Below, in pieces: positions 9,550 to 62,687 of a stretch of DNA of 64,000 nucleotides. The notes beneath the pieces were generated by a model. The model had not been told where the DNA came from. It saw only the letters and a program-made list of their open reading frames with translations, and made no database searches. Both the position numbers and the translations under genes were made by a program. The DNA comes from an uncultured bacterium (GTDB taxonomy: Bacteria; Margulisbacteria; WOR-1; JAKLHX01), in assembly GCA_964597815.1 (NCBI GenBank), contig CAZQZN010000002.1, positions 15,436 through 79,435 on the forward strand, in the 5' to 3' direction. The stretch's first letter is position 1. Every line of letters begins with the position of its first letter.

Positions 9550-9550
9550 A

Positions 9551-29126: not shown

Positions 29127-30213
29127 CAGCAAATAAATCAGATTTTTGGATCAGACCTTTTTTAACCAAAATCATTCCTGCATCAAACATTTTTACCATT
29201 TTTGAATTATTGATTATCTGATCCTTGTCAACATTGTTTTTAACGATTTCTCTTATCTTATCATCAAAGTATAAAACCTCAAAAATGCCTATCCTGCCCT
29301 TAAAACCAGAATAGTTGCACTCTTCACATTTTGGGCATATTCTTCTGACCAATCTTTGCGCAATTACACAAATCATAGCTGATGAGACAAAATACGGTTC
29401 AACCCCCATGTCAATGAGTCGTTCAACTGCTGAAGCAGCATCATTTGTGTGCAATGTTGAAAAAACAAGATGCCCTGTCATTGCGGATGCAACTGCAATT
29501 TTTGCTGTCTCGCTGTCTCTTATTTCACCAACCAAAATAATATCAGGATCTTGACGCAAAATTGAACGAAGTCCCCTGCTAAAATCGAGGCCAACTTTAT
29601 AATTTACTTGAATTTGGTTTATCCCTTGAATTTCATATTCAACAGGATCTTCTATTGTAACTATGTTCTTGCTTGGATCATTTATTTCGTTTATCGTTGA
29701 ATACAATGTTGTTGTTTTCCCACTGCCAGTAGGTCCTGTTATCAAAATAAGCCCAAATGGACGGCTTATAGATCTTCGATATATTTCTAACTGCCAATCC
29801 AATAAACCAAGCTCTGATAAAGACATCATCGCTTGGCTTTTGTTCAAAAGCCTTAGAACCGCTTTTTCGCCAAAAATTGTTGGAATTAAAGAAACTCTTA
29901 TATCAAAATGTTTGCCATCAATTAAAAAATGAAATTTCCCATCTTGAGGCAAGCGCGATTGGCCAATATCTGCACCAACCAAAATTTTAATCCTTGCGAT
30001 TACTTTTTGGGCTGTTTTGACATCCAAATGTTCTATTTCGTTTAACTGTCCATCAATTCGGCATCTAATCCTCATCCCTGACAAAAAAGGCTCAAAGTGA
30101 ATGTCGCTTGCCCTTGAAGATACGCATTTTCTTATCAGTTGATCAACGTAATCAACTATATCTTCAGAGTGTTGAGGCAAGATATTGTTGTTTTTTCTTG
30201 AAAACATATTCAA
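29095..30213 (-). CDS. GspE/PilB/ComGA-family pilus extension ATPase lacking the N-terminal domain
   Basis: ASDIHFEP, GPTGSGKTTT, TIEDPVE, LRQDPDIILVGEIRD, STLHT, CxxC pair. Confidence 0.92.
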   Translation of the reverse strand: MNMFSRKNNNILPQHSEDIVDYVDQLIRKCVSSRASDIHFEPFLSGMRIRCRIDGQLNEIEHLDVKTAQKVIARIKILVGADIGQSRLPQDGKFHFLIDGKHFDIRVSLIPTIFGEKAVLRLLNKSQAMMSLSELGLLDWQLEIYRRSISRPFGLILITGPTGSGKTTTLYSTINEINDPSKNIVTIEDPVEYEIQGINQIQVNYKVGLDFSRGLRSILRQDPDIILVGEIRDSETAKIAVASAMTGHLVFSTLHTNDAASAVERLIDMGVEPYFVSSAMICVIAQRLVRRICPKCEECNYSGFKGRIGIFEVLYFDDKIREIVKNNVDKDQIINNSKMVKMFDAGMILVKKGLIQKSDLFAVTFGDPTIFS

Positions 30214-30436
30214 AAGAAAATCCTATCAGGGCAAAAACATAGCCACCATCAAAATTAAAACCCAAAAATTTGCAATTTTTTTCTCTACACACTTCCATAA
30301 AAAGATCTATTACATAATTGATGCCTTTTGAAGCAACCAATTCTTTATAAGAAGAAACAGTAAAAACTGCCACTTTGTATATGAATTGCTTTTGTTTGTC
30401 TATCGCTATAAACTTTATAAAATCTTTTTCAAGCAT
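30164..30436 (-). CDS. Hypothetical 90-aa protein between comM and the pilus ATPase
   Basis: Strong SD (GAGGGGGTG) before ATG 30436; weak resemblance to a GGDEF half-domain. Confidence 0.6.
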   Translation of the reverse strand: MLEKDFIKFIAIDKQKQFIYKVAVFTVSSYKELVASKGINYVIDLFMEVCREKNCKFLGFNFDGGYVFALIGFSFEYVFKKKQQYLASTL

Positions 30437-30440
30437 ATTC

Positions 30441-31961
30441 TCACCCCCTCTCCTGCCGATATTGAAGAGATTCAGCAATATGATTTGGCTTTATCAATTC
30501 GCAGTTTTCTAAATCAGCAATAGTTCTTGCAACTTTCAAAATTTTGTCAAAAGATCTTGCACTTAATCTCAGTTTATAAATTGCGTCTTTTAATAAATTT
30601 TCAGCTTCTGTTGTCATAACACAGAATTTTCTTACATATTTAGGTGAGATCTTTGAGTTGCACAAGATATTCAATTTTTCAAAGCGTTTTCTTTGGATAT
30701 TTCTTGCTGCAACAACTCTTTGTCTAATTTGATAAGAAGATTCGGTATTTGTAGAATTAATTAATTCTTCCTTTTTCAACCTTGGAATTGATATGTGAAT
30801 ATCAATTCTATCTAAAATAGGACCAGATATTTTTGACAAATATTTTTGGACTTTCCAAGGAGGGCATAAACATACAGAATTAGGATCTCCATAATTTCCA
30901 CAAGGACATGGATTCATCGCAGCAATAAGCATAAATTGCGCAGGATAAGTTAGTGCTGTCGTTGCTCTTGATATTGTAACTTTCCCATCTTCAAGAGGTT
31001 GTCTTAATGATTCAATAACATTTTTGTCAAATTCCGGAAATTCATCTAAAAATAATAGCCCATGATGCGAAAGAGTTATTTCGCCGGGTTTTGGAATTCT
31101 TCCACCTCCAATCATTCCTATATCAGATGTAGTATGATGCGGAGACCTGAAAGGACGAGTTTTTATGAGAGATGTTTTTCTATCTAACAATCCTGCAATG
31201 CTGTATATCTTTGTAATTTCAAGTGCTTCTTCCAATGTTAAATCAGGCATTATTGAAGGCAGTCTTCTTGCAAGCATCGTTTTCCCGCTGCCAGGGGGGC
31301 CGACCATCAAAACATTGTGCCCACCAGCAGCAGCTATTTCCAAAGCTCTTTTTGCCAAATACTGACCTTTTACATCGCAAAAATCAAGCTCGCTTTTCAA
31401 ATCAGAAATAAAAATATCTTTTATATCTACAACGTACGGCTCAATTTTTTCTTTGCCCAATAAACTATTAACTGCTTGTTTTAAATTTTGTATTGGAAGA
31501 ACTTTGATCCCCTCAACAACTGCAGCTTCAAAAGCATTTTCATGAGGAACTAAAACTATTTTTATTCCTCTTGATTTCAACTCAAGACACATTGGAAGAA
31601 CCCCATTAACCGGCCTAAGGTTTCCATCTAATGAAAGTTCACCAATTGCTGCAATATCATCAAAAACATTCAAAGGTATTTGATTTGAAGCTGCTAAAAT
31701 GCCTAGTGCAATAGCAAGATCATAAATACTTCCCTCCTTTTTTGTGTCAGCTGGAGCTAAATTAACTATGCAATAACCTTGTGGAAAGTCATAGCCGCAA
31801 TTTATTAAAGCTGACTTTACTCTGTCTCGACTCTCTTTTATTGATGTATCAGCAAGACCAACTATTGATTGGCAAGGCAATCCTCTTGAGATATTTACCT
31901 CAACATCAACAGAATAACAATGAAGCCCTATAAAAGCAGCGCTTTTTATTCTAACAAACAT
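30441..31961 (-). CDS. comM: YifB/ComM Mg-chelatase-like AAA+ ATPase
   Basis: NLAPAD, GPPGSGKT, FRSPHH, FLDEFPEF, AAMNPCPCG, LSARS. Confidence 0.95.
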   Translation of the reverse strand: MFVRIKSAAFIGLHCYSVDVEVNISRGLPCQSIVGLADTSIKESRDRVKSALINCGYDFPQGYCIVNLAPADTKKEGSIYDLAIALGILAASNQIPLNVFDDIAAIGELSLDGNLRPVNGVLPMCLELKSRGIKIVLVPHENAFEAAVVEGIKVLPIQNLKQAVNSLLGKEKIEPYVVDIKDIFISDLKSELDFCDVKGQYLAKRALEIAAAGGHNVLMVGPPGSGKTMLARRLPSIMPDLTLEEALEITKIYSIAGLLDRKTSLIKTRPFRSPHHTTSDIGMIGGGRIPKPGEITLSHHGLLFLDEFPEFDKNVIESLRQPLEDGKVTISRATTALTYPAQFMLIAAMNPCPCGNYGDPNSVCLCPPWKVQKYLSKISGPILDRIDIHISIPRLKKEELINSTNTESSYQIRQRVVAARNIQRKRFEKLNILCNSKISPKYVRKFCVMTTEAENLLKDAIYKLRLSARSFDKILKVARTIADLENCELIKPNHIAESLQYRQERG

Positions 31962-31975: not shown

Positions 31976-32365
31976 TTAATACTCGTCATATAATACTTCA
32001 ACATCAAATGCACTTTTGAAATGCTCAATTTTTGTGGTTTTTTGCTTCTCATCCCTATAAATGGCAACGACATCAAACCTTGCATTTTTGCTGAAAAGAT
32101 TGTTCTTAAAAATATATTGTTTTGCCGCATTGATCATACATTGCCTTTTCTTTTTATCAATTGAAAACGATGGGTGGTAGAAATTTCTCGAAGAATAATT
32201 TTTTACTTCAACAAATACTATCTGTTCTCCATCTTCACAAATTAAATCGATCTCACCCATATTTGTTTTAAAGTTCCTTTTTATCACGGTCAAACCGACT
32301 TTCTTTAGATGTCTTTCAGCCAAAACCTCGCCTTTTTTGCCGATAATTCTGCTTTCTACCCCCAT
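31976..32365 (-). CDS. yraN: YraN family nuclease
   Basis: GKKGE..A, GEIDLI, FVEVK, RFDVVAI; next to comM. Confidence 0.9.
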   Translation of the reverse strand: MGVESRIIGKKGEVLAERHLKKVGLTVIKRNFKTNMGEIDLICEDGEQIVFVEVKNYSSRNFYHPSFSIDKKKRQCMINAAKQYIFKNNLFSKNARFDVVAIYRDEKQKTTKIEHFKSAFDVEVLYDEY

Positions 32366-32379: not shown

Positions 32380-32396
32380 AGCAATTTTTCCGCCAG
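32380..32396 (-). promoter_or_regulatory. sigma54-type -24/-12 promoter for yraN-comM-ORF-pilus ATPase
   Basis: CTGGCGGAAAAATTGCT fits TGGC-N7-TTGC; predicted +1 near 32369, ATG at 32365. Confidence 0.7.
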
Positions 32397-32461
32397 AGAA
32401 AAATGCACAAAATTAAGCGCCGAAAGAAAAAAATTGTGGAAATTTTCAACAGAAAAAATTG

Positions 32462-33331
32462 TTAGATGACCATATTATCAATAAGACGAGTTTTTCCAAG
32501 AAAGGCCGCTATTGCAATCAATACAGGCCTCTTTATTTCTTTAACATCTTCTAATGTATTAGGATCCACTACTGAAATATAATCTATCTTAATACCAATG
32601 TTCGCTTCAATAAATTTTTTCATGATTGAAATGATTTTTTTTGGGCTTTTTTCATTTGACAAAATCATTCGTTTTGCCAACAACAAAGATTTATATAATG
32701 CTGTGGCCTGATGCCTTTGAGAAGAAGACAAATATGAGTTTCTCGAACTCATTGCCAATCCGTCTCTTTCTCTGTAAGTTGGAGCAGTGATTATTTTCAC
32801 TTTGTAATTTAGATCTTTCACCATTTTTTTGATAATAAGCTGTTGCTGAAAATCTTTTGCGCCAAAAACAGCAATATCTGGATTTATGATATTGAACAGT
32901 TTTGCAACAACAGTTGTTACTCCTCTAAAATGTCCCGGCCTAGATATGCCACACAATTTTTTATCAAGCCCTTTTGACTTTCCCGCATCAACTTCCACAT
33001 AAGTAGAAAAACCTTCTGGAAACATATCATTTGGACTTGGATAAAACACAGCATCAACATTTTCTTTTTTTAGCAGTTTACAATCATTTTCAAAAGTTCG
33101 TGGATATCTTTTGTAATCCTCCTTTGGGCCAAACTGAATAGGATTTACAAATATGCTCACAATCACCTTTTCTGAATATTTTTTTGCCAATCTGACAAGC
33201 GATATATGTCCTTCGTGCAATGCCCCCATTGTTGGCACAAAACCTATCTTAAACCCCTTTCTCGTAAGAGATTGTGCGTATTGGTTCATTTTTTCAATAT
33301 TGGATATTATTTTCATTGACATTTTTTTCAC
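32462..33331 (-). CDS. panC: Pantoate-beta-alanine ligase
   Basis: FVPTMGALHEGH, SIFVNPIQF, RPGHFRGV, GLAMSSRN. Confidence 0.97.
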   Translation of the reverse strand: MKKMSMKIISNIEKMNQYAQSLTRKGFKIGFVPTMGALHEGHISLVRLAKKYSEKVIVSIFVNPIQFGPKEDYKRYPRTFENDCKLLKKENVDAVFYPSPNDMFPEGFSTYVEVDAGKSKGLDKKLCGISRPGHFRGVTTVVAKLFNIINPDIAVFGAKDFQQQLIIKKMVKDLNYKVKIITAPTYRERDGLAMSSRNSYLSSSQRHQATALYKSLLLAKRMILSNEKSPKKIISIMKKFIEANIGIKIDYISVVDPNTLEDVKEIKRPVLIAIAAFLGKTRLIDNMVI

Positions 33332-35536
33332 TTATTCTTTATAGCCGCATTTTTTAGAACATTCTTTAGTAATTCCGCTTTTGGAATATTTTTCCACTAG
33401 ATATGCACCGCACACAGGACAGGTTTCAACAAGCGGCTTTTGCCAAGATGAAAATTGGCACTTTGGATAATTACTGCAGGAATAAAAAATTCTACCTTTT
33501 TTAGTTCTTTTTTCAACAATTTCACCATCACAATCAGGCATTGGGCATTTAACTCCAATTTTTTTAAGTATAGAGCGCGTATTTTTGCATTTTGGATAAT
33601 TTGTGCATGCGAGAAATAAGCCATATCTGCTTCTTTTTACCTCCATTGGACTGCCACATTTTTCACAAGGAGGGATATCTTCTATTTTTTCTTCACCTTT
33701 TCTGGGTAAATCTTTCGTGTTTCTGCATTTAGGGAAATTAGAACAGGCCAAAAACGGGCCATACTTGCTTTGCCTAACAACCATAGGGCTGCCGCATTTT
33801 TCACATATTTCATCTGTTTTCTCTTCAAGCTTAACTTTTTGCATTTCAACGCTTGCTTTTTCCATCGCTTCTTTAAATGGAGTATAAAAATCCTGCAATA
33901 CTTTTGTCCATGATATTTTGCCTTCTTCAATTTCATCAAGTTCTTCTTCCATTAAAGCTGTAAACTTGACATCCAAAATTTTGGGGAAGTGCTTTACTAG
34001 CAATCCGTTTGTTATAATTCCAAGTTCAGTAGGTTTTAAAGCTTTGCCCTCTTTTACAACATAACCTCTTTCAATAATTGTGCTGATAATAGGCGCGTAT
34101 GTGCTCGGCCTTCCAATCCCTTTTTCTTCAAGCTCTTTTACAAGAGAGGCTTCGTTGTATCTGGCTGGTGGTTGAGTAAAATGTTGTGATGGTTCTATCT
34201 TAATAACAAATAACTTTTCGCCCGCTTCCAAATCAGGAAGAATATTTGGCCTTTCTTCTCCTTCATCCTTGCTCTCTTCATACAATTTTAAAAATCCATC
34301 AAATTTCATAAAATTACCATTTGCTCTGAAAACATAATTTTTAGCATTTATGTCAGCGGTAGTAATATCTAAAACAGCCGATTTCATCTGTGAAGCAACA
34401 AATCTTTTCCAAATCAATTCATATAGCTTGTACTGATCCGGAGTCAAATCCTTTTTTACTAGCTCCGGAGTTCTAAAAACAGAAGTCGGCCTGATTGCTT
34501 CATGTGCATCTTGCGCTCCTTTTTTTGACTTATACACATGAGGAACCTTTGGTAAATACTGAGGAGATATCTTCTCATTGATATATTTTCTTACTTCTTT
34601 AATCGCTTCATCCGAAACTCTTACAGAGTCAGTTCTCATGTAAGTTATGAGACCAATATATCCTTCCCCTGAGATTTCAACTCCTTCGTACAATTTTTGT
34701 GCTATGCTCATTGTTTTTTTTGCCTGAAATCCTAACTTTCTTGCCGCATCTTGTTGCAAAGTGCTTGTAATAAATGGAGGAGGAGAATTTCTTTTTTGTT
34801 CTCTTGTTTTTACTTCTTTGACAACAAAATCGGCATCTTTTAAATTTTCTAAAATTTCTTCTGCTTCGGTTTTATTCTTAATTTCAATGTTTTGGCCTTC
34901 TTTTGATAAAAGTTGCGCCGTAAAAATTATCTTTCTGTCTTGTTTAGTTAAATTTGCCGTTATTTTCCAATATTCTTTCGGAACAAATCTTTGAACAAGC
35001 ATCTCCCTTTCGCATATCAACCGCACAGCAACAGATTGCACTCTGCCTGCTGATAAACCTTTTCTCACTTTTTTCCACAACAGAGGAGAAATTTTATACC
35101 CTACAATTCTATCCAAAATTCTTCTTGCTTGTTGAGCCTCAACCCTTTTCATGTCAATATCTCTTGGATTTTCAACCGCGCGCAAAACAGCTGATTTTGT
35201 AATTTCGTTAAACTCTATTCTTCTGACTTTTTCATTCTCTTGCAAAATGTAAGCAAGATGCCAGGCAATTGCTTCCCCTTCTCTATCAGGATCAGGAGCC
35301 AAAAAAATTCTTTTCGCTTTTGCAGCATAACCTTTCAATTCTTTAACTATCTTTTCTTTTCCTTTTAATATGATGTATGTTGGAGAAAAGTTTTTTTCTA
35401 AATCCACTCCCAAAGCCCCAACAGGCAAATCTCTGATGTGCCCCGTGCTTGCTTTGACAAAAAAATCAGGACCCAAAAATTTTTCAAGGGTTTTTGCTTT
35501 TGCAGGAGATTCAACAATAACTAAGTTTTGAGCCAA
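33332..35536 (-). CDS. topA: DNA topoisomerase I with C-terminal zinc ribbons (TTG start)
   Basis: VESPAKAKT, DPDREGEAI, LITYMRTDS, GIGRPSTYA. Confidence 0.98.
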   Translation of the reverse strand: MAQNLVIVESPAKAKTLEKFLGPDFFVKASTGHIRDLPVGALGVDLEKNFSPTYIILKGKEKIVKELKGYAAKAKRIFLAPDPDREGEAIAWHLAYILQENEKVRRIEFNEITKSAVLRAVENPRDIDMKRVEAQQARRILDRIVGYKISPLLWKKVRKGLSAGRVQSVAVRLICEREMLVQRFVPKEYWKITANLTKQDRKIIFTAQLLSKEGQNIEIKNKTEAEEILENLKDADFVVKEVKTREQKRNSPPPFITSTLQQDAARKLGFQAKKTMSIAQKLYEGVEISGEGYIGLITYMRTDSVRVSDEAIKEVRKYINEKISPQYLPKVPHVYKSKKGAQDAHEAIRPTSVFRTPELVKKDLTPDQYKLYELIWKRFVASQMKSAVLDITTADINAKNYVFRANGNFMKFDGFLKLYEESKDEGEERPNILPDLEAGEKLFVIKIEPSQHFTQPPARYNEASLVKELEEKGIGRPSTYAPIISTIIERGYVVKEGKALKPTELGIITNGLLVKHFPKILDVKFTALMEEELDEIEEGKISWTKVLQDFYTPFKEAMEKASVEMQKVKLEEKTDEICEKCGSPMVVRQSKYGPFLACSNFPKCRNTKDLPRKGEEKIEDIPPCEKCGSPMEVKRSRYGLFLACTNYPKCKNTRSILKKIGVKCPMPDCDGEIVEKRTKKGRIFYSCSNYPKCQFSSWQKPLVETCPVCGAYLVEKYSKSGITKECSKKCGYKE

Positions 35537-35575
35537 TTATAAACGCCTTTCTTTCTTTGTATTAAACAATTTAAG

Positions 35576-35605
35576 AATATAACAGATAAAACAAATATCT
35601 GTCAA
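35576..35605 (-). promoter_or_regulatory. sigma70-type promoter for topA
   Basis: TTGACA-18 nt-TATATT with extended TG. Confidence 0.65.
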
Positions 35606-35610
35606 ACCCA

Positions 35611-36237
35611 TCAATTTTTCATAACAAGTTCTTCTGCTTTTTTTCTTGCGTTTTCAAGCGCTTTGTCAAGCAAGATTGTTTCATGAGGCCCGGAAAATGG
35701 CTTGTCTGCAAATATCACAACTTTGCTAAATGGAAGTGGAATAAAATATTTATCCCATCTGAAATGAAGCGTAATTTTTCTGTTTGCCGCAATGCCTACA
35801 GGTATTATTTTCGCTCCTGTTTTTTCCGCAATAAAAAATATACCGCTTTTTGATTTTCTCCTTGGTCCTTTTGGCCCATCGGGAACAATAACAAGCGCAT
35901 ATCCTTCCTGAAAAGATTTTATCATCTGAAATACCGCATAAGCACTTTGTTTTGCCCCTCCATCAAAAGAGGCACGAATTATTTTTGGATTAAAAATTTT
36001 TATAGCCTTTGAAACTATGTCACCCATAACTCCTTTTGTTGTCAGAACGGCAACTTTTTCAAACGGGTTTGCAAATCCAACAACAAAATAGGCTTCGTGC
36101 CAAAAAGCGTAAATAGATGACTGATGAAGATTTTCAAATCCATATTTTTCAATACGGATTAATTTTTGTGTTAAAAGCATCCCCAGCTGGACAAAAAAAG
36201 CGGCAATAGAAGTGTAAATATCAACCAATAAATTCAT
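35611..36237 (-). CDS. DUF374 / lysophospholipid acyltransferase-like protein
   Basis: YAFWH, PDGPKGPRR, WDKYFIPLPFS. Confidence 0.8.
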   Translation of the reverse strand: MNLLVDIYTSIAAFFVQLGMLLTQKLIRIEKYGFENLHQSSIYAFWHEAYFVVGFANPFEKVAVLTTKGVMGDIVSKAIKIFNPKIIRASFDGGAKQSAYAVFQMIKSFQEGYALVIVPDGPKGPRRKSKSGIFFIAEKTGAKIIPVGIAANRKITLHFRWDKYFIPLPFSKVVIFADKPFSGPHETILLDKALENARKKAEELVMKN

Positions 36238-36242
36238 TAGTA

Positions 36243-37958
36243 TTATCTTCCAAAAAGTCTATCAATATCATTTCTTTCAAGTTTTACAACTGTTGGCCTT
36301 CCGTGTGGACAAGTTGAAAAATAATCTGACGAAAAAATTTTTTCTATCAGCGAATTTTTTTCTTCTATTGTCAAATCCTCATTTGCTTTAACAGCGCTGT
36401 GGCATGCAGCAAGCTTTGCCAACTTGTCAATTGCCTCATCTGTCTTAAGATAATCAGAGCCCTCATCAAGCTGCAATGCTATATCTTTTATCAAAGATTT
36501 TATGTCTAAACGGGTTAACAAATAAGGAATTGCTTTTATCCTTATCGAATTCCCTCCAAAAATTTCTACATCAAATCCAAGTTTTTTTAAGTTGCCTAAA
36601 TTTTTTTCTATAATAGAAAATTCTTTTTTATCAAGCTCAAAAACTTCAGGCACTAAACATATTTGTTGGGAGGAATTATTAGACATTTTATTTTCTTTTA
36701 AAGATTCATAAAGCATCCTTTCATGGGCGGCATGCTGATCAATTACAAATAAAGTATTCCCATCTAAACAAACAATATATGTGTTGGCAATTGTAGCAAC
36801 AACTCTTGGCGTTTTTTTCTCCTCAGTAAAAATCTTCTCACTATGTTGAAAACTTTCTATAATAGGATTGTCTAAAAACTTTGTTTCGTATGGCATCTGT
36901 AAGTTTATTGCATCAGAAGTATTTAGCCGAGATTTATCAATAGATTTATAACTTTGTTCAACAGAATAAACAAGTTTTGGAGGAGAAGCTAAAGATAAAG
37001 CATCTAAAACAGCTTTCTCTATCAAATTGTTTATTTTTTGTGGATTAGAAAATTTTATCTCTTTTTTTGTCGGATGAACATTTACATCTATTTCTTTTGG
37101 ATCAAAAGAAATATGAATTACAGCTGATGGATGTCTATCAGAAGGGATGAGATTCTTATATGCAATTTCCAGAGCGTTTGAGAGAACAAAACCTTTGACA
37201 CTTCTTCCATTTACAAAAAAATGCTGATTTGATCGGTTCACCTTCGTATCGGATGGTTTGCTTATATATCCTTTTACATCCTTATAAGAAACCTCAAGAA
37301 GATTTCGCGCAAAAGACAAACCATAAATGTCTGCAATCGCATCGAACAACGAACCATTTCCTGTAGAAGACAAAACCTCTTTTCCATCGCAAATTAGCTT
37401 AAAGTTTACATCTGGATTGGACAAAATAAAATCCGAAACAACACTAACAATATGTTTTTCTTCTGTTAAATCAGATTTCATAAATTTCAATCTAGCAGGT
37501 GTATTAAAGAACAGGTTTTTTACAATTACCGTTGTTCCTTGTGGGCAACCAAACTCCGAAATATCTACCACCTTTCCACCATCAATAATTATTTTTGTGC
37601 CATTTTCACCATTATTGGTAAAGAGTTCAAAGTTTGAGACAGAAGAAACAGCAAAAAGGGCTTCTCCTCTAAATCCTAATGTTTTGATATTGAAAAGATC
37701 ATCAATATCTCTTATTTTTGATGTAGCATGCCTTTGAACCGATAAAACCGCATCCGCTCGGCTCATTCCAATACCATTATCAGTTACACGAATAAACTTT
37801 TTTCCGCCTGATAAAATCTCAATTTCAATTTTTTTGGCAGAAGCATCCAAAGAATTTTCGACTAATTCTTTAACAACTGATGATGGCCTTTCAACAACTT
37901 CACCAGCAGATATTTTTGAAACAACATAATCATCCAATATTTTTATGGTTTTTGTCAT
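36243..37958 (-). CDS. mutL: DNA mismatch repair protein MutL with endonuclease motif
   Basis: ISAGEVVERP, GFRGEAL, DVNVHPTK, DQHAAHER, ACH, CPHGRP. Confidence 0.97.
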   Translation of the reverse strand: MTKTIKILDDYVVSKISAGEVVERPSSVVKELVENSLDASAKKIEIEILSGGKKFIRVTDNGIGMSRADAVLSVQRHATSKIRDIDDLFNIKTLGFRGEALFAVSSVSNFELFTNNGENGTKIIIDGGKVVDISEFGCPQGTTVIVKNLFFNTPARLKFMKSDLTEEKHIVSVVSDFILSNPDVNFKLICDGKEVLSSTGNGSLFDAIADIYGLSFARNLLEVSYKDVKGYISKPSDTKVNRSNQHFFVNGRSVKGFVLSNALEIAYKNLIPSDRHPSAVIHISFDPKEIDVNVHPTKKEIKFSNPQKINNLIEKAVLDALSLASPPKLVYSVEQSYKSIDKSRLNTSDAINLQMPYETKFLDNPIIESFQHSEKIFTEEKKTPRVVATIANTYIVCLDGNTLFVIDQHAAHERMLYESLKENKMSNNSSQQICLVPEVFELDKKEFSIIEKNLGNLKKLGFDVEIFGGNSIRIKAIPYLLTRLDIKSLIKDIALQLDEGSDYLKTDEAIDKLAKLAACHSAVKANEDLTIEEKNSLIEKIFSSDYFSTCPHGRPTVVKLERNDIDRLFGR

Positions 37959-37992
37959 AATTTATGTTAATTTTAGCATGATGATCCATTCT

Positions 37993-39282
37993 TCAATAGG
38001 CAACAACATTTTGGAGAATTTCAACAAATTTTGGAAAAGAAGTGTTTATGCAATCCGTATCTTGTATCAAAATTGGATCGTTAGCAGAAAGACCAGCGAT
38101 TGCAAGCGACATTGCAATTCTGTGATCTCCATGGCTGGTACATGTTGCGCCTTTTATTTTATTTTTCCCAAAGATGACCAAACCATCTTCTTTATCAATA
38201 GCGTTAACCCCAATTTTTTTTAGTTCCTCAACAGTCGTTTTAATCCTATCACTTTCTTTCACTCTTAATTCCTGTGCATCAGAAATGATCGTTTCCCCAT
38301 CCGCTAGTGCTGCTGCAACTGAAATTATTGGAATTTCATCAATTATTCTTGGAATTATATCTCCTTTAATTTCAATGCCTTTAAGAAAGGAGTATTTTGC
38401 TGTAATATCTCCAACTTCTTCTTCGCAAATCTTTCTCAAATTTTCTACTTTTATATCAGCGCCCATTTTCATCAAAACATCTAATAATCCCGTTCTTGTT
38501 GGATTTAGGCCAACATTTGTTATTTTTATCTCTGAATCTGGGATAATAAGCGCCGCAACAATAAAGAACGCAGCAGAAGAAATATCCCCCGGAATTATTA
38601 CATTTTTGGGTTTTATTTCATCAACATTGCTTATGTGTATAGAGTTATTTCTTTTTGAAAAAGGAATTTCAAAGTACTTAAATAATCTTTCTGTATGATC
38701 TCTTGATGCAGCTGGTTCAGAAATAACAGATTCTCCCTGAGCAAATAAAGAAGCAAACATAAGACAGGATTTTACTTGAGCGCTTGGAATAGGCAAGTCA
38801 TAATTGATCGCTTTGAGTTTCCCTCCTTTGACTTCAAGTGGTGCAAAATTGCCGTCATCTCTGCCTATAATAGTCGCCCCCATTTTTCTCAACGGCTCGA
38901 CTACTCTTTTCATAGGCCTTTGCCTTATGGATTCATCTCCAGTTATTGTGGAAACAAAATCCTGCCCAGACAAAATGCCTAAAATTAGCCTTATTAGTGT
39001 TCCTGAATTGCCAACATAAAGAATATCATTTGGATGTCGTAATCCTCTTAAACCTTTTCCATAAACCAAATAGTTGCTATCACCATTTTTTTCAACTTTT
39101 ATTCCCATCGCTCTAAAACACTCTATTGTACGCAGACAATCATCTGATTCAAGAAAGTTTTGAACTTCACACACGCCATTTGACAGAGAACAGAGCATTA
39201 TTGAACGATGAGATATAGATTTGTCAGATTGAACCTGAATCTTCCCACTTATTTTTTTACAAGGAATTACTTTAAGATCCAT
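37993..39282 (-). CDS. aroA: 3-phosphoshikimate 1-carboxyvinyltransferase
   Basis: DKSISHR, GNSGT, SAQVKS, RDHTER, RVKESDRI, GDHRIAM. Confidence 0.97.
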   Translation of the reverse strand: MDLKVIPCKKISGKIQVQSDKSISHRSIMLCSLSNGVCEVQNFLESDDCLRTIECFRAMGIKVEKNGDSNYLVYGKGLRGLRHPNDILYVGNSGTLIRLILGILSGQDFVSTITGDESIRQRPMKRVVEPLRKMGATIIGRDDGNFAPLEVKGGKLKAINYDLPIPSAQVKSCLMFASLFAQGESVISEPAASRDHTERLFKYFEIPFSKRNNSIHISNVDEIKPKNVIIPGDISSAAFFIVAALIIPDSEIKITNVGLNPTRTGLLDVLMKMGADIKVENLRKICEEEVGDITAKYSFLKGIEIKGDIIPRIIDEIPIISVAAALADGETIISDAQELRVKESDRIKTTVEELKKIGVNAIDKEDGLVIFGKNKIKGATCTSHGDHRIAMSLAIAGLSANDPILIQDTDCINTSFPKFVEILQNVVAY

Positions 39283-40135
39283 AAATACTATCTCTAAATT
39301 CTTTTGCTTTTTTCAAGAGATTTTCCATAGCTTTCAAATCTCCGTTTCTTATTGCGGATTCAAGCAAATCCAATTCAGATTTAAAATTTTTTAACATTTC
39401 AAGGATTGCACTTTTGTTTGTCGAAAACATATCAATGCCCATCTGTATATTGCCGGAAGCAATTCTTGTAGTGTCTCTAAAACCAGAAGAGGCCAGTTTA
39501 ACACAATTATCCCTGTTTTGCTTTAATTCCACAATTGTGTTCACCAAAGAAACAGCAATGGCAATAGGCATATGGCTGATAGCTGCAACAGTAAAATCAT
39601 GCTCTTCTGGGGTCATAATAGTAATGTTTACATCTAATTTTTCAATAAAAGAAACGAGTTTTTGCAAAGCGGATTTATTCGTATAAGATGTTTGCGTTAA
39701 AACATAATTATTGCCTTCAAGCAAATATTTGGTTGCAGCTTTTATACCAGACCTTTCGCTGCCTGCCATTGGATGACCGCCAACAAAAAAAATTCTTTCG
39801 GGAACGCACCGTTCAAGTTCTTTTACTATATCGGCTTTTGAAGAGGCAACATCTGTTATGATGCATCCATCCTTTACTGAAGAAAATATTGTTTTTGCTG
39901 TTGGAACAACCGTTGAAATAGGTGTACAAATAAAAACAATATCAGCGGATTTTGTCCCATCGATAAGATCCAAAGTATATTCATCAATTGCTTCTTTTTT
40001 TACCGCTTCTTCTAGATTTTGAATATTTCTGCTTATCCCGATAACTTTTTTGGAAATACCTTTATTTTTAACTGCCATGCCTATTGAACCACCAATCAAT
40101 CCCATGCCAACTATCGCTATTGTATCCATAATCAA
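39272..40135 (-). CDS. tyrA: Prephenate/arogenate dehydrogenase
   Basis: GMGLIGGS, TDVASSK, GGHPMAGSE, SGFRDTTRIA. Confidence 0.92.
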   Translation of the reverse strand: MIMDTIAIVGMGLIGGSIGMAVKNKGISKKVIGISRNIQNLEEAVKKEAIDEYTLDLIDGTKSADIVFICTPISTVVPTAKTIFSSVKDGCIITDVASSKADIVKELERCVPERIFFVGGHPMAGSERSGIKAATKYLLEGNNYVLTQTSYTNKSALQKLVSFIEKLDVNITIMTPEEHDFTVAAISHMPIAIAVSLVNTIVELKQNRDNCVKLASSGFRDTTRIASGNIQMGIDMFSTNKSAILEMLKNFKSELDLLESAIRNGDLKAMENLLKKAKEFRDSIYGS

Positions 40136-41322
40136 AAAACCTCTCTAAAAAATTTTGGAATCAGCTCAAATCCGTTTTGCACAACAAAATTGCTTTTTGA
40201 AATCTGATTTTCAGAAAATTTCTCGACGCCATTTTTGCTAACATTAGTCCCCATTATAGCAAAAGGGACCAATCCTCTTGCATGGGTTTTCAACGGTATT
40301 GGGGTTAAATGATCAGAAGTTAAAAGGATTCTGTATTGTTTAAAATCTTTGATTTTGGATAGAATCGTACCAACAACAAACTTATCAAAATCTTCTATGG
40401 CTTTAATTTTGCCTTTTATATCTCCATTGTGTCCAGTTTCATCAGGTGCCTCAACATGAATGAAAACAAAATCCTTCATCTTTAAAGAGTTTAACGCATA
40501 TTCCGCTTTGCCAATATAGTTTGTATCTAAATATCCAGTTGCACCAGGAACATTTATTACATCCAAACCAGCGTAAACACCTATGCCCTTAATTAAATCA
40601 ACAGCTGTAATTACAGAACCGGTTATTTGAAACATTTCTTCATAGTTTGGCATTTTTGGTTTGGTCCCCTGCCCCCAAAGCCAAATCGAATTTGCGGTTT
40701 TGTCCCCACGTCTGGTTAAATTTTTATTGACATCTGATTTCAAAAGCACCTCTGTTGCGTTTTTCATCAATTCAATCAAAAATTGGGATCCAACTCCCTT
40801 TGGCAAATAGTTTTTAGTTGATTTGCCAGTTATATCATGCGGAGGAGTACATATTGCTTTTTTTGGTCCGTTTTTGATTACGCATAGATGCCTATAACTC
40901 ATTCCGGGATAAAATCTGACTCTTTCATCCGAAAGTTTCGAATTCAATTCCAGAATTATTTTTTTTGCATCTTCCGTGCTTATATGCCCAGCACTGTAAT
41001 CATCCATAATGCCATCATTGATTGTCACCAAATTACATCTAAAAGCAACTTCGTCATCCTTTAAATCAACACCTAAACTTGCTGCTTCAAGCGGAGCTCT
41101 ACCGGAATAATATTTTTTTGGATCATATCCAAAAATGCTCAAATTTGCCACATCAGAAGCAGGTGGAAAATTTTCTGGAACAAAATTTGCCATTCCCACA
41201 ATTCCATTTGAAGCAATTATGTCCATATTTGGTGTTTTTGCAGCTTCAAGAGGTGTCTTGTTATCAAGATCTTTTAGCGGATAATCAGGCATGCCATCGC
41301 CGACTAAAATTATGTATTTCAT
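40132..41322 (-). CDS. apgM: Cofactor-independent phosphoglycerate mutase, ApgM type
   Basis: GDGMPD, TPLEAAKTPNMD, SDVAN, HVEAPDETGH, SDH.TP. Confidence 0.9.
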   Translation of the reverse strand: MKYIILVGDGMPDYPLKDLDNKTPLEAAKTPNMDIIASNGIVGMANFVPENFPPASDVANLSIFGYDPKKYYSGRAPLEAASLGVDLKDDEVAFRCNLVTINDGIMDDYSAGHISTEDAKKIILELNSKLSDERVRFYPGMSYRHLCVIKNGPKKAICTPPHDITGKSTKNYLPKGVGSQFLIELMKNATEVLLKSDVNKNLTRRGDKTANSIWLWGQGTKPKMPNYEEMFQITGSVITAVDLIKGIGVYAGLDVINVPGATGYLDTNYIGKAEYALNSLKMKDFVFIHVEAPDETGHNGDIKGKIKAIEDFDKFVVGTILSKIKDFKQYRILLTSDHLTPIPLKTHARGLVPFAIMGTNVSKNGVEKFSENQISKSNFVVQNGFELIPKFFREVF

Positions 41323-41341
41323 AAACTAACCTTTCATTGCC

Positions 41342-41902
41342 TCATTTTTTTTGTTTTTTTTGAATTTTGACGTCAAAAGATCTATAGAAGATATGATTTA
41401 ATTGTTCAAGGCTGTCGGGATTTATAAAACTTATAGAATTATTCATCACATTTATGGCTGGCTCAATTATAGCTACACTCGGCAGCGAAAAAACATAATT
41501 TTTTACCGACTGCGGAACCGGCAACATCGAACCAAAAAATAAAACAAACCATATTATTAACAACCCTTTCGCAAAACCAAACACAGCACCTCCAAGAGAG
41601 TTTATCATCCCAAAAACGCTCATTCCAATCATTTTGTGGATAAAATTTCCGATAACGAAAAAAACGAACATTATTCCTACCCATAAAATAACAAAACTCA
41701 AAATATTAAGAGCATTCTCGGGAATCTTTATAAAACCGGCAATAATTTTGGATACATCTCTATACCAATAAAAAGAAGCAAATACTGCAATTAAAACCGC
41801 AACAATATCCAGCAAACATCTTATAAGGCCCCTAAAATATCCCCTAATAGTTGTGCCAATTAAAAAAGCGAATATAAGATAATCAATCCATGTAAAAGCC
41901 AT
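41342..41902 (-). CDS. cvpA: CvpA family membrane protein
   Basis: IDYLI, RGYFRG, LGGAVFGFAKG. Confidence 0.85.
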   Translation of the reverse strand: MAFTWIDYLIFAFLIGTTIRGYFRGLIRCLLDIVAVLIAVFASFYWYRDVSKIIAGFIKIPENALNILSFVILWVGIMFVFFVIGNFIHKMIGMSVFGMINSLGGAVFGFAKGLLIIWFVLFFGSMLPVPQSVKNYVFSLPSVAIIEPAINVMNNSISFINPDSLEQLNHIFYRSFDVKIQKKQKK

Positions 41903-42022
41903 ATTTTTTCCCTGTACGCACCAGAATTAACTACGAGGAACTTACACAAATAAAAATCTTATGTATATGATATCACAAAAATAATTCTTAGATTTTATAC
42001 TGCACATGATATACTTTTAATA

Positions 42023-42892
42023 ATGGGAGACAAAAAGATTGTTTATCTCGTAGGAGATCCTGTTGAACACAGCGTATCTCCCCAAATGCACAATCTGTGT
42101 TATAAGGAACTTGGGCTAAATTTTGAATACAAGCTACTTAAAGTTTCTTCAATCGAATTGGAAGAAAAAATAAAAGAACTCAAAAATCCATCTGTTGCCG
42201 GATTCAATGTAACAATTCCTCACAAAGAAAACATTATCAAATTTTTAGATTACATAGACAACTCCGCAAAATTAATTGGGGCAGTTAATTCTGTAAAAAA
42301 TGAAAACGGTATTTTGAAAGGTTTTAATACAGATTCAATTGGATTTATAGAGTCGTTGATATCAGACGCAAAATTCATGCCTAACGGCAAAAAAATTTTA
42401 CTGATTGGAGCAGGAGGAGCCGCAAAAGCAATCGCTGTTGCTCTATGCAAAGAAAACATTTCAGAACTTACCATCTATGATATAGACAAAGAAAAAGCGG
42501 CAAAACTTTGCGAAAATTTGAAAACAAATTTTGACCTTAAAGTTTATCCTTTGGATTCATATGAAAAAATCAATCAAGCAATAATAAATAGCGATTGCAT
42601 AATAAACGCAAGCCCGATTGGAATGTATCCAAAAACAGACATCTCTCCAATAAAAGAAGATGCTCCTTTTAGACATGGCCAAGTTTTATATGATGTGGTC
42701 TATAATCCTAAAACAACAAAACTTATGAAAATAGCCTCTTCAAAAGGCGCAAAAACTATTTCCGGATTGGGCATGCTTGTCAGACAAGGTGCCGCAGCAT
42801 TTGAACTCTTTACGGAAAAAGTCCCGAATATTAAAACAATGTGGAATGCAGCTGAAGAAGCGCTTGGACTTGAAAAAACTATAATTTTTTAG
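42023..42892 (+). CDS. aroE: Shikimate dehydrogenase
   Basis: HSVSPQMH, NVTIPHK, GFNTD, GAGGAA, DVVYNP. Confidence 0.96.
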   Translation: MGDKKIVYLVGDPVEHSVSPQMHNLCYKELGLNFEYKLLKVSSIELEEKIKELKNPSVAGFNVTIPHKENIIKFLDYIDNSAKLIGAVNSVKNENGILKGFNTDSIGFIESLISDAKFMPNGKKILLIGAGGAAKAIAVALCKENISELTIYDIDKEKAAKLCENLKTNFDLKVYPLDSYEKINQAIINSDCIINASPIGMYPKTDISPIKEDAPFRHGQVLYDVVYNPKTTKLMKIASSKGAKTISGLGMLVRQGAAAFELFTEKVPNIKTMWNAAEEALGLEKTIIF

Positions 42893-42912
42893 ACTTTAAT
42901 CTTGCTTTTTAT

Positions 42913-42929
42913 CTGGCGGGAAAATTGCT
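42913..42929 (+). promoter_or_regulatory. sigma54-type -24/-12 promoter for the minor pilin cluster
   Basis: CTGGCGGGAAAATTGCT fits TGGC-N7-TTGC; predicted +1 near 42940, ATG at 42942. Confidence 0.7.
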
Positions 42930-42941: not shown

Positions 42942-43370
42942 ATGAAAAATGCTTTTACAATCATTGAGGTTTTAGTCGCTCTTTTTATTATAAATATAAT
43001 ATTTTTTACAGCCAACTTTGCAACAAATCCTTTCAAAAAAACATTTGATTTAAATTCCTCTGCAAGAGAATTAGAAGACAATCTGAGAATAACAAAAAAC
43101 ATGGCGATCTCAAAATCCTGCATAGCGGAACTTGAAGCAAAAGAAAACAGCATAGTTATCAGAACAGAAAACATTAAAACAAAAACATTTGAAGAAGTAA
43201 AAAAAGTCTACCTCTCAAAAGATCTGTTCTTTCTAAAACCCGTGGTTTTTAGATTTTCATCAAACGGAATGCCTTGTGTTGGTTTTTCGGGGACAGCATC
43301 ACTTTGCAGCAAAAATGGATTAACAAAAAAAATCATAGTATCATCTTTCGGGAGAATAAGGATTGAATAA
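42942..43370 (+). CDS. Minor pilin/pseudopilin (FimT/GspH-like)
   Basis: MKNA|FTIIEVLV class III signal; C-terminal F...G and SSFGRIR. Confidence 0.8.
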   Translation: MKNAFTIIEVLVALFIINIIFFTANFATNPFKKTFDLNSSARELEDNLRITKNMAISKSCIAELEAKENSIVIRTENIKTKTFEEVKKVYLSKDLFFLKPVVFRFSSNGMPCVGFSGTASLCSKNGLTKKIIVSSFGRIRIE

Positions 43371-43662
43371 AAAAGCTTTTTCATTGATCGAAACAATTAT
43401 TGCCTTTATGGCATTTCTAATTATTTTTGCAAATCTTTCTTTTCTTATAAATTTCTCGGCAAAAAAATACACAAAAATGCAAAAAATAATCATTGATTTA
43501 TTCAAAGCTCAAACAATACTTGAAAACTCAAAATCAGTTGATTTCGACAAATTAAAATCCAACGAATATCTTGTTGTTTCAGATTTGGACAAAGACAACA
43601 AACTTCTAAAAGTAAAACAAGGGCAAGTTGAGTTAATCGTCTTAAGATCAAGATATGAATAA
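43363..43662 (+). CDS. Minor pilin/pseudopilin (PilV/GspI-like; TTG start)
   Basis: MNKKA|FSLIETII class III signal. Confidence 0.75.
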   Translation: MNKKAFSLIETIIAFMAFLIIFANLSFLINFSAKKYTKMQKIIIDLFKAQTILENSKSVDFDKLKSNEYLVVSDLDKDNKLLKVKQGQVELIVLRSRYE

Positions 43663-44098
43663 AAAATCTTTTACTCTTATAGAAATTATTATTTCAATGA
43701 TGATATTTTCGATCATTTTATCCAGCTTAATAGGCTTTTTATTAAAAACCAAAAAAATCCATATTACAAATTCTGCTGCGATCAATAATTTTTTGGAATC
43801 ATCTCTAACAGCAGATTTTTTGTCAAGAGAAATCAAATCCTGCAATTTAGTAAGTTCCTCTTCAACACAAAACAAACTCATTCTCATAAAAGGAGCCGAT
43901 ATAATTACATACGAAAACATTGGAAATAAAATAAAAAGAAACAAAAACACTTTTGGTCAATACCTGACAAATGACGGAGTAATAGACAAAGTTTCTTTTT
44001 CTTATCCAAAAGACAATGTTGTAAGAATTGAGATTTTGCCAGTTTTATCCCCAGCAATTATAACAATGGAGTGCTTTTTAAGGAACTACAATGAATAA
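43655..44098 (+). CDS. Minor pilin/pseudopilin (PilW/GspJ-like)
   Basis: MNKKS|FTLIEIII class III signal. Confidence 0.78.
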   Translation: MNKKSFTLIEIIISMMIFSIILSSLIGFLLKTKKIHITNSAAINNFLESSLTADFLSREIKSCNLVSSSSTQNKLILIKGADIITYENIGNKIKRNKNTFGQYLTNDGVIDKVSFSYPKDNVVRIEILPVLSPAIITMECFLRNYNE

Positions 44099-44519
44099 AA
44101 AAGCTTTTTCAACATATTACACAATGATTTTTTTTATGCTTTTTATGATGATCTGTTTTGCTTTTGCAAAAAATGTCATAAATTCAGCAAGAATAGCCAC
44201 TTTAACTTTACAAAGCGCAAAAGTTTTTTATTTAGCAGAGTCAGGAATTGAATATGCAAAAAGCAAAATTGTCTCTGACAACAACTGGCACACTGACAAC
44301 ACAACAATAATTGAAGATAAATCTTATTTACTGCTTAACGCAAACGGTCAAATAATAACCATAAAAAACGGAGGTTTTAAAATTATTAGAGCCAAAGATA
44401 AAAACATCATTTATTCGATAGGATTTTTGGGAAATGAAATGCTTTTAAGCCCATCTTATTCATTCCAAAAATGTGTTTTTTCTTTACCAATGAAAAGTGT
44501 TAAGTGGGAAGAATTATGA
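44091..44519 (+). CDS. Minor pilin (PilX/GspK-like, no Glu5)
   Basis: MNKKA|FSTYYTM; A.VFYLAESGIEYA PilX-type motif. Confidence 0.7.
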   Translation: MNKKAFSTYYTMIFFMLFMMICFAFAKNVINSARIATLTLQSAKVFYLAESGIEYAKSKIVSDNNWHTDNTTIIEDKSYLLLNANGQIITIKNGGFKIIRAKDKNIIYSIGFLGNEMLLSPSYSFQKCVFSLPMKSVKWEEL

Positions 44520-53772: not shown

Positions 53773-53816
53773 CAACTTTTATTATAAACACTTTTGAAAA
53801 GAATGACAATCAGACA

Positions 53817-62438: not shown

Positions 62439-62485
62439 GGCTCACTCCTTCTTCCCATTCCGCGAGGATGGGAGTGTATAATCTA

Positions 62486-62647: not shown

Positions 62648-62657
62648 CGCAAAGTTG

Positions 62658-62687
62658 ATGATATCACAAGAAAATTTTTTTTGTCAA
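62658..62687 (-). promoter_or_regulatory. sigma70-type promoter for riboswitch-btuB
   Basis: TTGACA-18 nt-TATCAT with extended TG. Confidence 0.65.

Follow-up and report, generated by a model that had tools for sequence, protein, structure and literature searches.

In the 64-kb stretch of DNA analysed here (the window), two operons, one encoding YraN, ComM and a pilus ATPase and the other four minor pilins, are each preceded by a copy of the same short element (motif 1), and both copies are likely to act as sigma-54 (RpoN)-type -24/-12 promoters that drive one co-regulated switch. Its conservation across related species and its similar position before the start codon support the view that the element acts as a genuine promoter under selection, common to both operons. 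An inverted repeat further upstream (motif 2) is a candidate binding site for the activator that such promoters need.

Genes of the two operons

The genes named in the preliminary description (yraN-comM-ORF-ATPase and four minor pilins) were borne out by Pfam and NCBIfam matches and by prepilin-like N-termini (Table 1). The first operon begins with yraN, which lacks a Shine-Dalgarno sequence, and closes with an ATPase of ComGA-like size (~370 aa) that matches the NCBIfam GspE, PilB and ComGA models, every one under its equivalog cut-off. Between comM and the ATPase lies orf90, which has a strong Shine-Dalgarno sequence (GGAGAGGGGGTGA) and belongs to no family in Pfam or NCBIfam; its AlphaFold single-sequence model has a pLDDT of 66, and a Foldseek comparison with the PDB had no match under E 0.07. 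In the second operon, pilin-like protein 4 is kept as the fourth ORF in relatives (L194, L196, L199 and L201). The pilus genes resemble those of a ComG-type pilus in size, order and N-termini, while the NCBIfam scores do not reach the family cut-offs (ComGA 266 vs 300 bits, ComGD 38 vs 70, ComGF 39 vs 80, ComGE 23 vs 49) and membership is not established. The host is an uncultured hot-spring bacterium of the Margulisbacteria/Saganbacteria lineage, and its cell is probably diderm, since a gene for a TonB-dependent receptor is present.

YraN and ComM form a nuclease-helicase pair that acts in transformation D-loop processing (bioRxiv 10.1101/2024.02.06.579203), which backs the role in transformation recombination assigned to them at the outset. 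The two genes are adjacent in 34% of the genomes that have both and were predicted to cooperate (bioRxiv 10.1101/2024.02.06.579203). They are likewise adjacent in the window. That study did not describe how the pair is regulated; here they share an operon with the pilus ATPase and, it appears, a promoter with the minor pilins.

Table 1 Positions of the promoter elements, the candidate enhancer and the genes in the window.
Feature	Position	Strand	Remarks
Motif 1a, sigma-54-type -24/-12 element	32380..32397	-	TCTGGCGGAAAAATTGCT; before yraN
Motif 1b, sigma-54-type -24/-12 element	42912..42929	+	TCTGGCGGGAAAATTGCT; before first minor pilin
Motif 2, TGT-N11-ACA imperfect inverted repeat, candidate enhancer/activator-binding site	32435..32451	-	TGTTGAAAATTTCCACA
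yraN (UPF0102, PD-(D/E)XK nuclease)	31976..32365	-	Pfam PF02021, E 3.7e-23; NCBIfam YraN models
comM (YifB-family Mg-chelatase-like AAA+ helicase)	30441..31961	-	Pfam ChlI, Mg_chelatase, Mg_chelatase_C; TIGR00368, 633 bits
orf90, conserved 90-aa protein between comM and ATPase	30164..30436	-	Also in L001, L002, L189, L193
Short assembly-type pilus/secretion ATPase (GspE/PilB core)	29095..30213	-	Pfam T2SSE, E 4e-119
Minor pilin 1, weakly ComGD-like, operon-first	42942..43370	+	Without Shine-Dalgarno; N-terminus MKNAFTIIE
Minor pilin 2	43363..43662	+	N-terminus MNKKAFSLIE
Minor pilin 3, weakly ComGF/ComGE-like	43655..44098	+	N-terminus MNKKSFTLIE
Pilin-like protein 4, without Glu5	44091..44519	+	N-terminus MNKKAFSTYY

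Motif 1 in the window

The sequence TCTGGCGGRAAAATTGCT has two matches in the 64 kb where 0.03 would be expected, at least two matches arose in 0 of 100 shuffles, and a third match did not appear in the window even with up to 2 mismatches. The search agrees with the preliminary description on two counts, that a near-identical motif of the pattern TGGC-N7-TTGC precedes both operons and that the intergenic regions hold no other full match. This spacing equals GG-N10-GC. At yraN, the GG doublet is at 32394-32393, GC at 32382-32381 and the ATG at 32365, and transcription is predicted to start near 32369; at the first minor pilin, GG is at 42915-42916, GC at 42927-42928 and the ATG at 42942, with a predicted start near 42940. 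From the end of the motif to the ATG there are 14 nt at yraN and 12 nt at the pilin. We consider the two copies a probable pair of sigma-54 promoters.

Relaxing the core to GGC-N5-AATTGC added just two matches in the window, both intragenic and both without the final T. Another candidate site, TGGCTATGTTTTTGC at 30231-30245 on the minus strand, was rejected and is treated as a chance match because it falls within the coding part of orf90 and shows no conservation as a motif. Shared 11-mers were sought between the window's two upstream regions and in the L199/L200 pair, and neither comparison revealed a common site. Scanning metagenome contigs for the exact 18-mer gave 107 matches and no new regulon member; those in the window's organism (L156 and L185) are the two known sites. 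The other matches lie mostly on unrelated contigs, often of higher GC, and one recurring group among them corresponds to a conserved in-frame SGGKIA peptide of a membrane-protein gene.

Conservation of motif 1 among relatives

The comparison covered 14 sites in 11 genomes, i.e., the window and 10 other species of the lineage with 65-74% DNA identity, and comprised 13 competence sites and one site before a lipoprotein/Lnt operon. As minor pilin 1 gave no homologue by word-based search, the relatives' pilin loci were reached through the neighbouring ychF. Motif 1 precedes yraN in 8 genomes (outside the window at L189, L190, L192, L002, L003, L197 and L200) and the first minor pilin in 5 (outside the window at L194, L196, L199 and L201), and it is visible at both operons in two, the window and GCA_026387835.1. 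Conservation in relatives, suggested in the preliminary description as a check, is seen at 13 competence sites in the 11 genomes, those of the window included, while the intergenic DNA around the motif is otherwise unalignable between species. Chance similarity, or a functionless relic of a local duplication, has nothing more than the AT-rich background in its favour, and this reading is refuted by the conservation, as an element with an expected count of 0.03 is kept in 10 further species at orthologous positions, with flanks that cannot be aligned.

Invariant at all 14 sites are G2, G3, C4 and A10-T16 (GGC and AATTGCT), the other positions vary, and the GG and GC doublets are exactly 10 nt apart at every site, which is the signature of a sigma-54 -24/-12 promoter. 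The lineage consensus, YGGC-RKG-AWAATTGCT, appears to be a good but lineage-specific match to the extended sigma-54 consensus YTGGCACG-N4-TTGCW: TTGCT is found at 14/14 sites, TGGC at 10/14 and CGGC at 4/14, while the classic AC at -22/-21 is not kept (A at -22 in 5/14, C at -21 in 0/14). Within one genome, the two promoters are near-identical beyond the sigma-54 core, with TCTGGCGGRAAAATTGCT at both operons of the window and GGATGGCGGMCAAATTGCT at both the yraN and the pilin site of GCA_026387835.1.

The fourteenth site (L198) belongs to a relative and stands before a lipoprotein/Lnt operon, where the same 16-mer as at the L196 pilin promoter lies ~30 nt (32 nt) before the ATG with a separate, normal Shine-Dalgarno sequence, a layout that would be the classic one for sigma-54. 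The preliminary description had proposed a sigma-54-controlled competence regulon, and the part of it that stands is the selected promoter common to both operons; as the relative's extra site precedes a lipoprotein operon, the regulon may not be purely one of competence.

A candidate enhancer upstream

Cross-species comparison was the only approach by which motif 2 was found. At the window yraN site, 56 nt separate the start of motif 2 from the T of TGGC downstream, and in 243 kb motif 2 has seven matches at up to 2 mismatches, each 56-147 nt upstream of motif 1 and in the same orientation; L201 holds an eighth pair of motif 2 and motif 1. Counted over the competence sites, motif 2 stands 56-147 bp upstream at 8 of the 13 with up to 2 mismatches, and at L002 with 3. 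Its variable distance, as in enhancers, makes it a candidate enhancer, and it would fit the activator that the preliminary description had postulated. It is missing or degenerate at L197, L200 and L003, and a good copy was not found before the window pilin operon, where the best match has 5 mismatches.

The gap before the window pilin operon, together with the recurrence of the L196 16-mer before the lipoprotein/Lnt operon, could mean that both operons have sigma-54 promoters and yet form no dedicated competence regulon, being served by separate activators or by a promoter type general in the lineage. We regard this as unlikely, as motif 2 accompanies yraN sites as well as pilin sites across genomes and the promoter pairs of the window and of GCA_026387835.1 are near-identical beyond the core. 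One shared activator is the reading that we follow below.

Sigma-54 and its activators

Neither rpoN (six-frame RpoN box search and Pfam) nor a bEBP gene was found in the window or in ~240 kb of the relatives' flanks. The NtrC-family regulators K07714 and K07713 are marked 'reliable' in Riflemargulisbacteria, and in Saganbacteria K07714 is listed for nearly all genomes and K07713 for about half (PMC6349859, Supplementary Data 4), while in Margulisbacteria RA1A nifA adjoins nif (PMC6349859). The presence of such activators in the phylum implies sigma-54. In Cyanobacteria, which are the sister group, rpoN is rare (PMC12316311). Literature searches that paired Margulisbacteria with sigma-54, or Termititenax with sigma, returned nothing.

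With rpoN not seen in these sequences, motif 1 might instead be the site of another DNA-binding protein, such as a repressor or activator over an unrecognised promoter, or of a new sigma factor. The spacer between GG and GC (RKGAWAA) indeed varies less than that of classic sigma-54 promoters, and the copies within a genome match in spacer and 5' flank. We nevertheless find this improbable. Motif 1 is not palindromic, and what never varies in it is precisely the two doublets GG and GC at a 10-nt interval, together with TTGCT. An element of 16 nt that ends 12-16 nt before the ATG also does not accommodate a -35/-10 pair of the sigma-70 family, and the activators of the phylum point to sigma-54. 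From the same observations we infer sigma-54 itself as the factor that reads motif 1.

Position at the start codon

All 13 competence sites place the start codon's A at 14-18 nt from the C of GC and lack a Shine-Dalgarno sequence, and a -24/-12 element that abuts the ATG in this way predicts leaderless mRNAs. The organism appears to use such mRNAs widely, as seven start codons in the window have a perfect TATAAT box 4-9 nt upstream (0.32 expected) and a Shine-Dalgarno sequence precedes 4/21 operon-first genes vs 17/44 internal genes; with this, the -24/-12 element stands where a promoter would be expected. To our knowledge, leaderless sigma-54 transcripts are unusual. A search of RNA-seq runs returned none that contains the locus. 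In Deinococcus-Thermus, a -10 box adjacent to ORFs gives leaderless mRNAs (PMC12340547), and the window resembles that group in having a promoter element directly before the start codon, operon-first genes without Shine-Dalgarno sequences and the TATAAT-adjacent pattern. It differs in that the adjacent element at the two competence operons is of the -24/-12 type and not a -10 box, and it belongs to another phylum.

Other promoter, terminator and RNA signals

A sigma-70-type promoter on the operon strand was found at none of the four sites scanned (both window operons, L197 yraN and L003), the sole match at L003 being on the opposite strand, and the site alignment contains no conserved -10 between motif 1 and the ATG, where L199 has cgtccccccttg. 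With neither a hexamer pair nor a conserved -10, a sigma-70 promoter was rejected as an explanation.

Motif 1 might also act in RNA, controlling translation or stability of a panC-yraN or aroE-pilin read-through transcript, as both window copies have a same-strand upstream gene with no terminator match at either site and the distance to the ATG varies little. We hold this to be very improbable. Predicted RNA folding at two sites does not exceed that of shuffles in stability (z -0.11 and -0.67), Rfam has no match at the motif 1 sites, and it is the sequence that is conserved and not pairing; moreover, the L198 site stands 32 nt from its ATG and has a separate Shine-Dalgarno sequence. In relatives, hairpins part motif 1 from the upstream gene, one of them scored as an intrinsic terminator. 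At L003, motif 1 is separated from an HU-like gene by a terminator-like hairpin with a T-run, at L189 the gene upstream is divergent, and at L199 the pilins follow panC, not aroE, yet motif 1 is kept; from these three contexts, motif 1 appears to be independent of the upstream gene, as a promoter would be.

Proposed mechanism

Under the sigma-54 reading, motif 1a would fire yraN-comM-orf90-ATPase and motif 1b the four-gene minor-pilin operon. RNA polymerase with sigma-54 would bind GG and GC and stay in a closed complex until it is remodelled by an AAA+ enhancer-binding activator that is probably bound at the TGT-N11-ACA of motif 2. The transcription start would fall 12-14 nt past GC, i.e., 0-5 nt before the ATG, so that translation of the operon-first gene would use a leaderless or near-leaderless mRNA and that of the internal genes would rely on their Shine-Dalgarno sites. 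One signal and one activator would in this way switch on the pilus parts for uptake together with YraN/ComM for integration of incoming DNA, and the presumed phenotype would be competence. Whether the Margulisbacteria/Saganbacteria run natural competence by a switch of sigma-54 and an enhancer-binding protein, with leaderless mRNAs and one TGT-N11-ACA enhancer coupling minor pilins, ATPase and YraN/ComM, seems to us evenly balanced. We know of nothing on gene regulation or competence in these bacteria, which have no cultured members.

Comparison with known systems

Control of a type IV pilin gene by RpoN and a PilR/PilS-type system is familiar from Pseudomonas pilA. Commensal Neisseria show RpoN-type control of pilE with Npa (PMC6528607), Xanthomonas controls type IV pilin genes through RpoN2-PilRX (PMC7170775), and in Ralstonia rpoN1 is required for twitching and natural competence (PMC4371752). 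As in these systems, a putative -24/-12 element stands immediately in front of pilin genes, a site for an activator lies upstream (here a candidate), and sigma-54 would be linked to competence via pili. Unlike in them, the targets here are four ComG-like minor pilins together with yraN-comM and the pilus ATPase behind the same promoter, which abuts the ORF and predicts a leaderless mRNA, and the lineage is sister to the mostly rpoN-free Cyanobacteria.

Competence regulons held together by a single element are well established, e.g., CRP-S/Sxy in Gammaproteobacteria, to whose regulons comM belongs, the ComX (sigma-X) cin-box in streptococci and the ComK boxes in Bacillus. The window is similar in that operons for DNA uptake and for DNA processing share one cis element (two operons examined here), but this element is of the sigma-54 type and not a CRP, sigma-70-family or ComK site.

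A candidate enhancer and a -24/-12 promoter on the uptake and YraN/ComM operons provide a concrete, testable regulon model, and the pairing kept in ~10 related species predicts one co-regulated competence programme. If the model is true, sigma-54 control, known for the pilin genes of Proteobacteria, would also reach recombination in transformation, and the lineage would exemplify leaderless translation from sigma-54 promoters. In genomes of the lineage, the pair of motif 1 and motif 2 can serve as a guide to the activator and to the other competence genes.

A shared element upstream of yraN and the minor pilins

The minus-strand operon yraN-comM-orf90-pilus ATPase and the plus-strand operon of four small prepilin-like ORFs were previously described as sharing a near-identical upstream element. 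This was borne out: the 18-mer TCTGGCGGRAAAATTGCT (motif 1) matches twice in the window against 0.03 expected, with no third match even when two mismatches are tolerated, and 0 of 100 shuffles gave two or more matches. Its spacing, TGGC-N7-TTGC or GG-N10-GC, is of the sigma-54 type, and a relaxed core adds just two window matches, both intragenic. The two copies end 14 nt before the yraN ATG (32365) and 12 nt before the first prepilin-like ATG (42942), respectively. Scans found neither a sigma-70-type promoter nor a terminator upstream of either window operon, while the intergenic RNAs at motif 1 fold no more stably than shuffles and match no Rfam family.

The role in transformation that the preliminary description assigned to YraN and ComM agrees with published work, in which this nuclease-helicase pair acts on the transformation D-loop (bioRxiv 10.1101/2024.02.06.579203). 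The prepilin-like ORFs display weak matches to ComGD, ComGF, and ComGE, all under the family cut-offs. The 90-aa orf90, which recurs in relatives L001, L002, L189, and L193, matches no known family or fold and may either partner the short ATPase or be an N-terminal domain split off from it. The remaining window genes are housekeeping genes.

Features of the window and of homologous loci in relatives (L-numbers)
Feature	Location	Strand	Details
Motif 1 before yraN	window 32380-32397	-	TCTGGCGGRAAAATTGCT
Motif 1 before first pilin	window 42912-42929	+	TCTGGCGGRAAAATTGCT
Motif 1 before yraN	L189		TGGCGAGAAAATTGCT
Motif 1 before yraN	L190, L192		CGGCGGGATAATTGCT
Motif 1 before yraN	L002		CGGCATGAAAATTGCT
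Motif 1 before yraN	L003		CGGCATGATAATTGCT
Motif 1 before yraN	L197		TGGCAATATAATTGCT
Motif 1 before yraN	L200		TGGCGGACAAATTGCT
Motif 1 before first pilin	L194		TGGCGGGAAAATTGCT
Motif 1 before first pilin	L196		TGGCATGAAAATTGCT
Motif 1 before first pilin	L199		TGGCGGCCAAATTGCT
Motif 1 before first pilin	L201		TGGCGGGATAATTGCT
Third site	L198 7000-7015	-	TGGCATGAAAATTGCT
Operon behind third site	L198 6970-2852	-	lipoprotein, two secreted proteins, Lnt-like (CN_hydrolase); divergent from nikR
Motif 2 at yraN site	window 32435-32451	-
yraN	first gene of operon	-	UPF0102, E 3.7e-23
comM	second gene of operon	-	YifB family, 633 bits
orf90	window 30164-30436	-	conserved; strong Shine-Dalgarno sequence
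Pilus ATPase	last gene of operon	-	~370 aa, GspE/PilB core, ComGA-like size
Four prepilin-like ORFs		+	N-termini MKNAFTIIE, MNKKAFSLIE, MNKKSFTLIE, MNKKAFSTYY
Gene starts adjacent to perfect/near-perfect TATAAT	window 6297-6926, 6966-8135, 16983-18008, 44520-45545, 52426-53775	-
Gene starts adjacent to perfect/near-perfect TATAAT	window 9241-9549, 12570-13178, 42023	+
GC-rich hairpins	L190 ~9500-9560; L192 ~9500-9540; L002 ~1750-1775
GC-rich hairpins	L199 ~12700-12790; L201 ~12660-12790	-
In-frame SGGKIA 18-mer	L094, L109, L110, L124, L147, L154, L180, L187, L188		metagenome
Cys-rich ORF, 89 aa	window 28857-29126	+	…CIYDRHQRCQVRKKPFNICKKC…
tmRNA	window 26537-26960	-	adjoins smpB
Large serine recombinase	L190 15173-16867; L191 5627-7321	-	Resolvase, Recombinase, Zn_ribbon_recom
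Cobalamin riboswitch	window 62474-62664	-
TonB-dependent receptor	window 60597-62438	-	downstream of riboswitch
tonB	window 59940-60551	-	downstream of riboswitch

Conservation across relatives

The window has a GC content of 33%, and its sequence is found mostly in hot-spring metagenomes. Relatives' loci were gathered via ComM and via YchF, whose gene adjoins the pilins. The closest organism-labelled ComM and YchF proteins belong to Candidatus Margulisiibacteriota, Saganbacteria, and Margulisbacteria MAGs (53-67% identity), and metagenome relatives reach 79%. Gene order is largely preserved, and the genomes all represent different species (65-74% nucleotide identity in alignable parts). The preliminary description had proposed examining the element in relatives; at all 14 sites the bases GGC and AATTGCT are unchanged, the adjoining sequences cannot be aligned, and motif 1 can be written as YGGCNNNNWAATTGCT.

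In both the window and GCA_026387835.1, the genome comprising L199 and L200, the two promoters are near-identical, including spacer and 5' flank (TCTGGCGGR… and GGATGGCGGM…, respectively). As this agreement exceeds that of orthologous sites between genomes, it suggests that the promoters may have co-evolved with a trans factor, or undergone gene conversion.

The element's contexts also point to independence from the upstream gene. A terminator-like hairpin with a T-run separates it from an HU-like gene in L003, the upstream gene is divergent in L189, and in L199 the pilins are preceded by panC rather than aroE, with motif 1 still present. In L190, L192, L002, L199, and L201, perfect GC-rich hairpins follow the stop codon of the upstream gene and are inserted between motif 2 and motif 1. 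They are missing from the AT-rich window and could be terminators of the upstream genes or small repeat elements.

A candidate upstream enhancer

Motif 2, TGTYGRAAAWTWCCRCA, is an imperfect inverted repeat (TGT-N11-ACA) that emerged from cross-species comparison. Besides the window yraN site, it is present at L189, L190, L192, L194, L196, L199, and L201, 56-147 nt upstream of motif 1 and in a shared orientation. In 243 kb scanned, 7/7 matches with at most two mismatches precede motif 1, and L201 provides an eighth pair beyond that scan. Weaker copies with three mismatches occur at L002 and L198, whereas L197, L200, L003, and the window's pilin site have no recognisable copy. Motif 2 accompanies the downstream operon irrespective of the upstream gene. 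The variable distance and the intervening hairpins do not fit a phase-dependent sigma-70 activator. By this placement, motif 2 is instead a candidate enhancer of the kind bound by a looping AAA+ activator.

Neither a sigma-54 gene nor an enhancer-binding protein is encoded in the 64-kb window, and both the window and the flanking DNA of relatives lack an RpoN box and a GAFTGA motif. NtrC-family activators are not known to function without sigma-54. Indirect support for sigma-54 comes from the NtrC-family regulators K07714 and K07713, which are 'reliable' in Riflemargulisbacteria; in Saganbacteria, K07714 is so in nearly all genomes and K07713 in about half, and both are missing from nearly all other genome columns (PMC6349859 Supplementary Data 4). 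Moreover, nifA adjoins the nif operon in Margulisbacteria RA1A (Matheus Carnevali et al. 2019, PMC6349859). In Cyanobacteria, rpoN is rare (PMC12316311).

Predicted leaderless messages

At the 13 competence sites (motif 1 before yraN or the first minor pilin), the start-codon A is 14-18 nt past the C of GC, and a Shine-Dalgarno sequence is absent at all 13. Sigma-54 would initiate ~12 nt past GC, leaving a leader of just 1-5 nt and hence a leaderless or near-leaderless mRNA. Such a message would in turn require the promoter to sit exactly where motif 1 does. Elsewhere in the window, perfect TATAAT boxes are found 4-9 nt ahead of seven start codons (0.32 expected), and the genes concerned are without a Shine-Dalgarno sequence. 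A -10-like box adjoins the ORF in 10/21 operon-first genes, and Shine-Dalgarno sequences precede 4/21 operon-first as against 17/44 internal genes. Leaderless mRNAs are probably the norm for operon-first genes of this lineage, resembling Deinococcus-Thermus, where a -10 box likewise lies next to the ORF (PMC12340547).

Extent of the proposed regulon

Scanning metagenomes for the exact 18-mer revealed no sites from this organism beyond the two known. Many unrelated matches come from low-GC bacteria, in which a conserved gene for a membrane protein contains the 18-mer in frame (TCT GGC GGA AAA ATT GCT, SGGKIA).

A third site exists in the 1.77-Mb genome comprising L197 and L198, as a 16-mer identical to the L196 pilin promoter. 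It lies ~30 nt ahead of a lipoprotein operon that has a normal Shine-Dalgarno sequence, with a weak motif 2 78 nt upstream, a classic sigma-54 layout. This operon is a possible non-competence member, and the regulon may therefore extend past competence genes. Of the sigma-54 competence regulon proposed in the preliminary description, the conserved sigma-54-type element on both operons stands, while restriction to competence is called into question by the L198 site.

Taken together, a sigma-54-type promoter with a candidate upstream enhancer, common to the uptake and the uptake-plus-recombination operons and giving leaderless messages, appears likely. Known RpoN/PilR systems control pilin genes, and rpoN is required for Ralstonia competence (PMC4371752). 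Here, by comparison, the targets are minor pilins plus yraN-comM in a different lineage, the promoter abuts the ORF, and motif 2 is a new candidate enhancer.

Other features of the window

An 89-aa Cys-rich ORF without a Pfam family is convergent with the pilus ATPase gene and overlaps its 3' end; ORFs of 88-92 aa occupy this position in L189, L190, and L192. The tag peptide that ARAGORN assigns to the tmRNA (AETFESLVARVDWTFLNVKAPVAQVA) may be mispredicted, being unusually long and terminating in VA. One relative carries a large serine recombinase inserted behind the smpB/tmRNA region, a common integration hotspot. Finally, a cobalamin riboswitch ahead of a TonB-dependent receptor gene and tonB is an ordinary B12-uptake arrangement, indicating a diderm cell despite the ComG-like look of the minor pilins.
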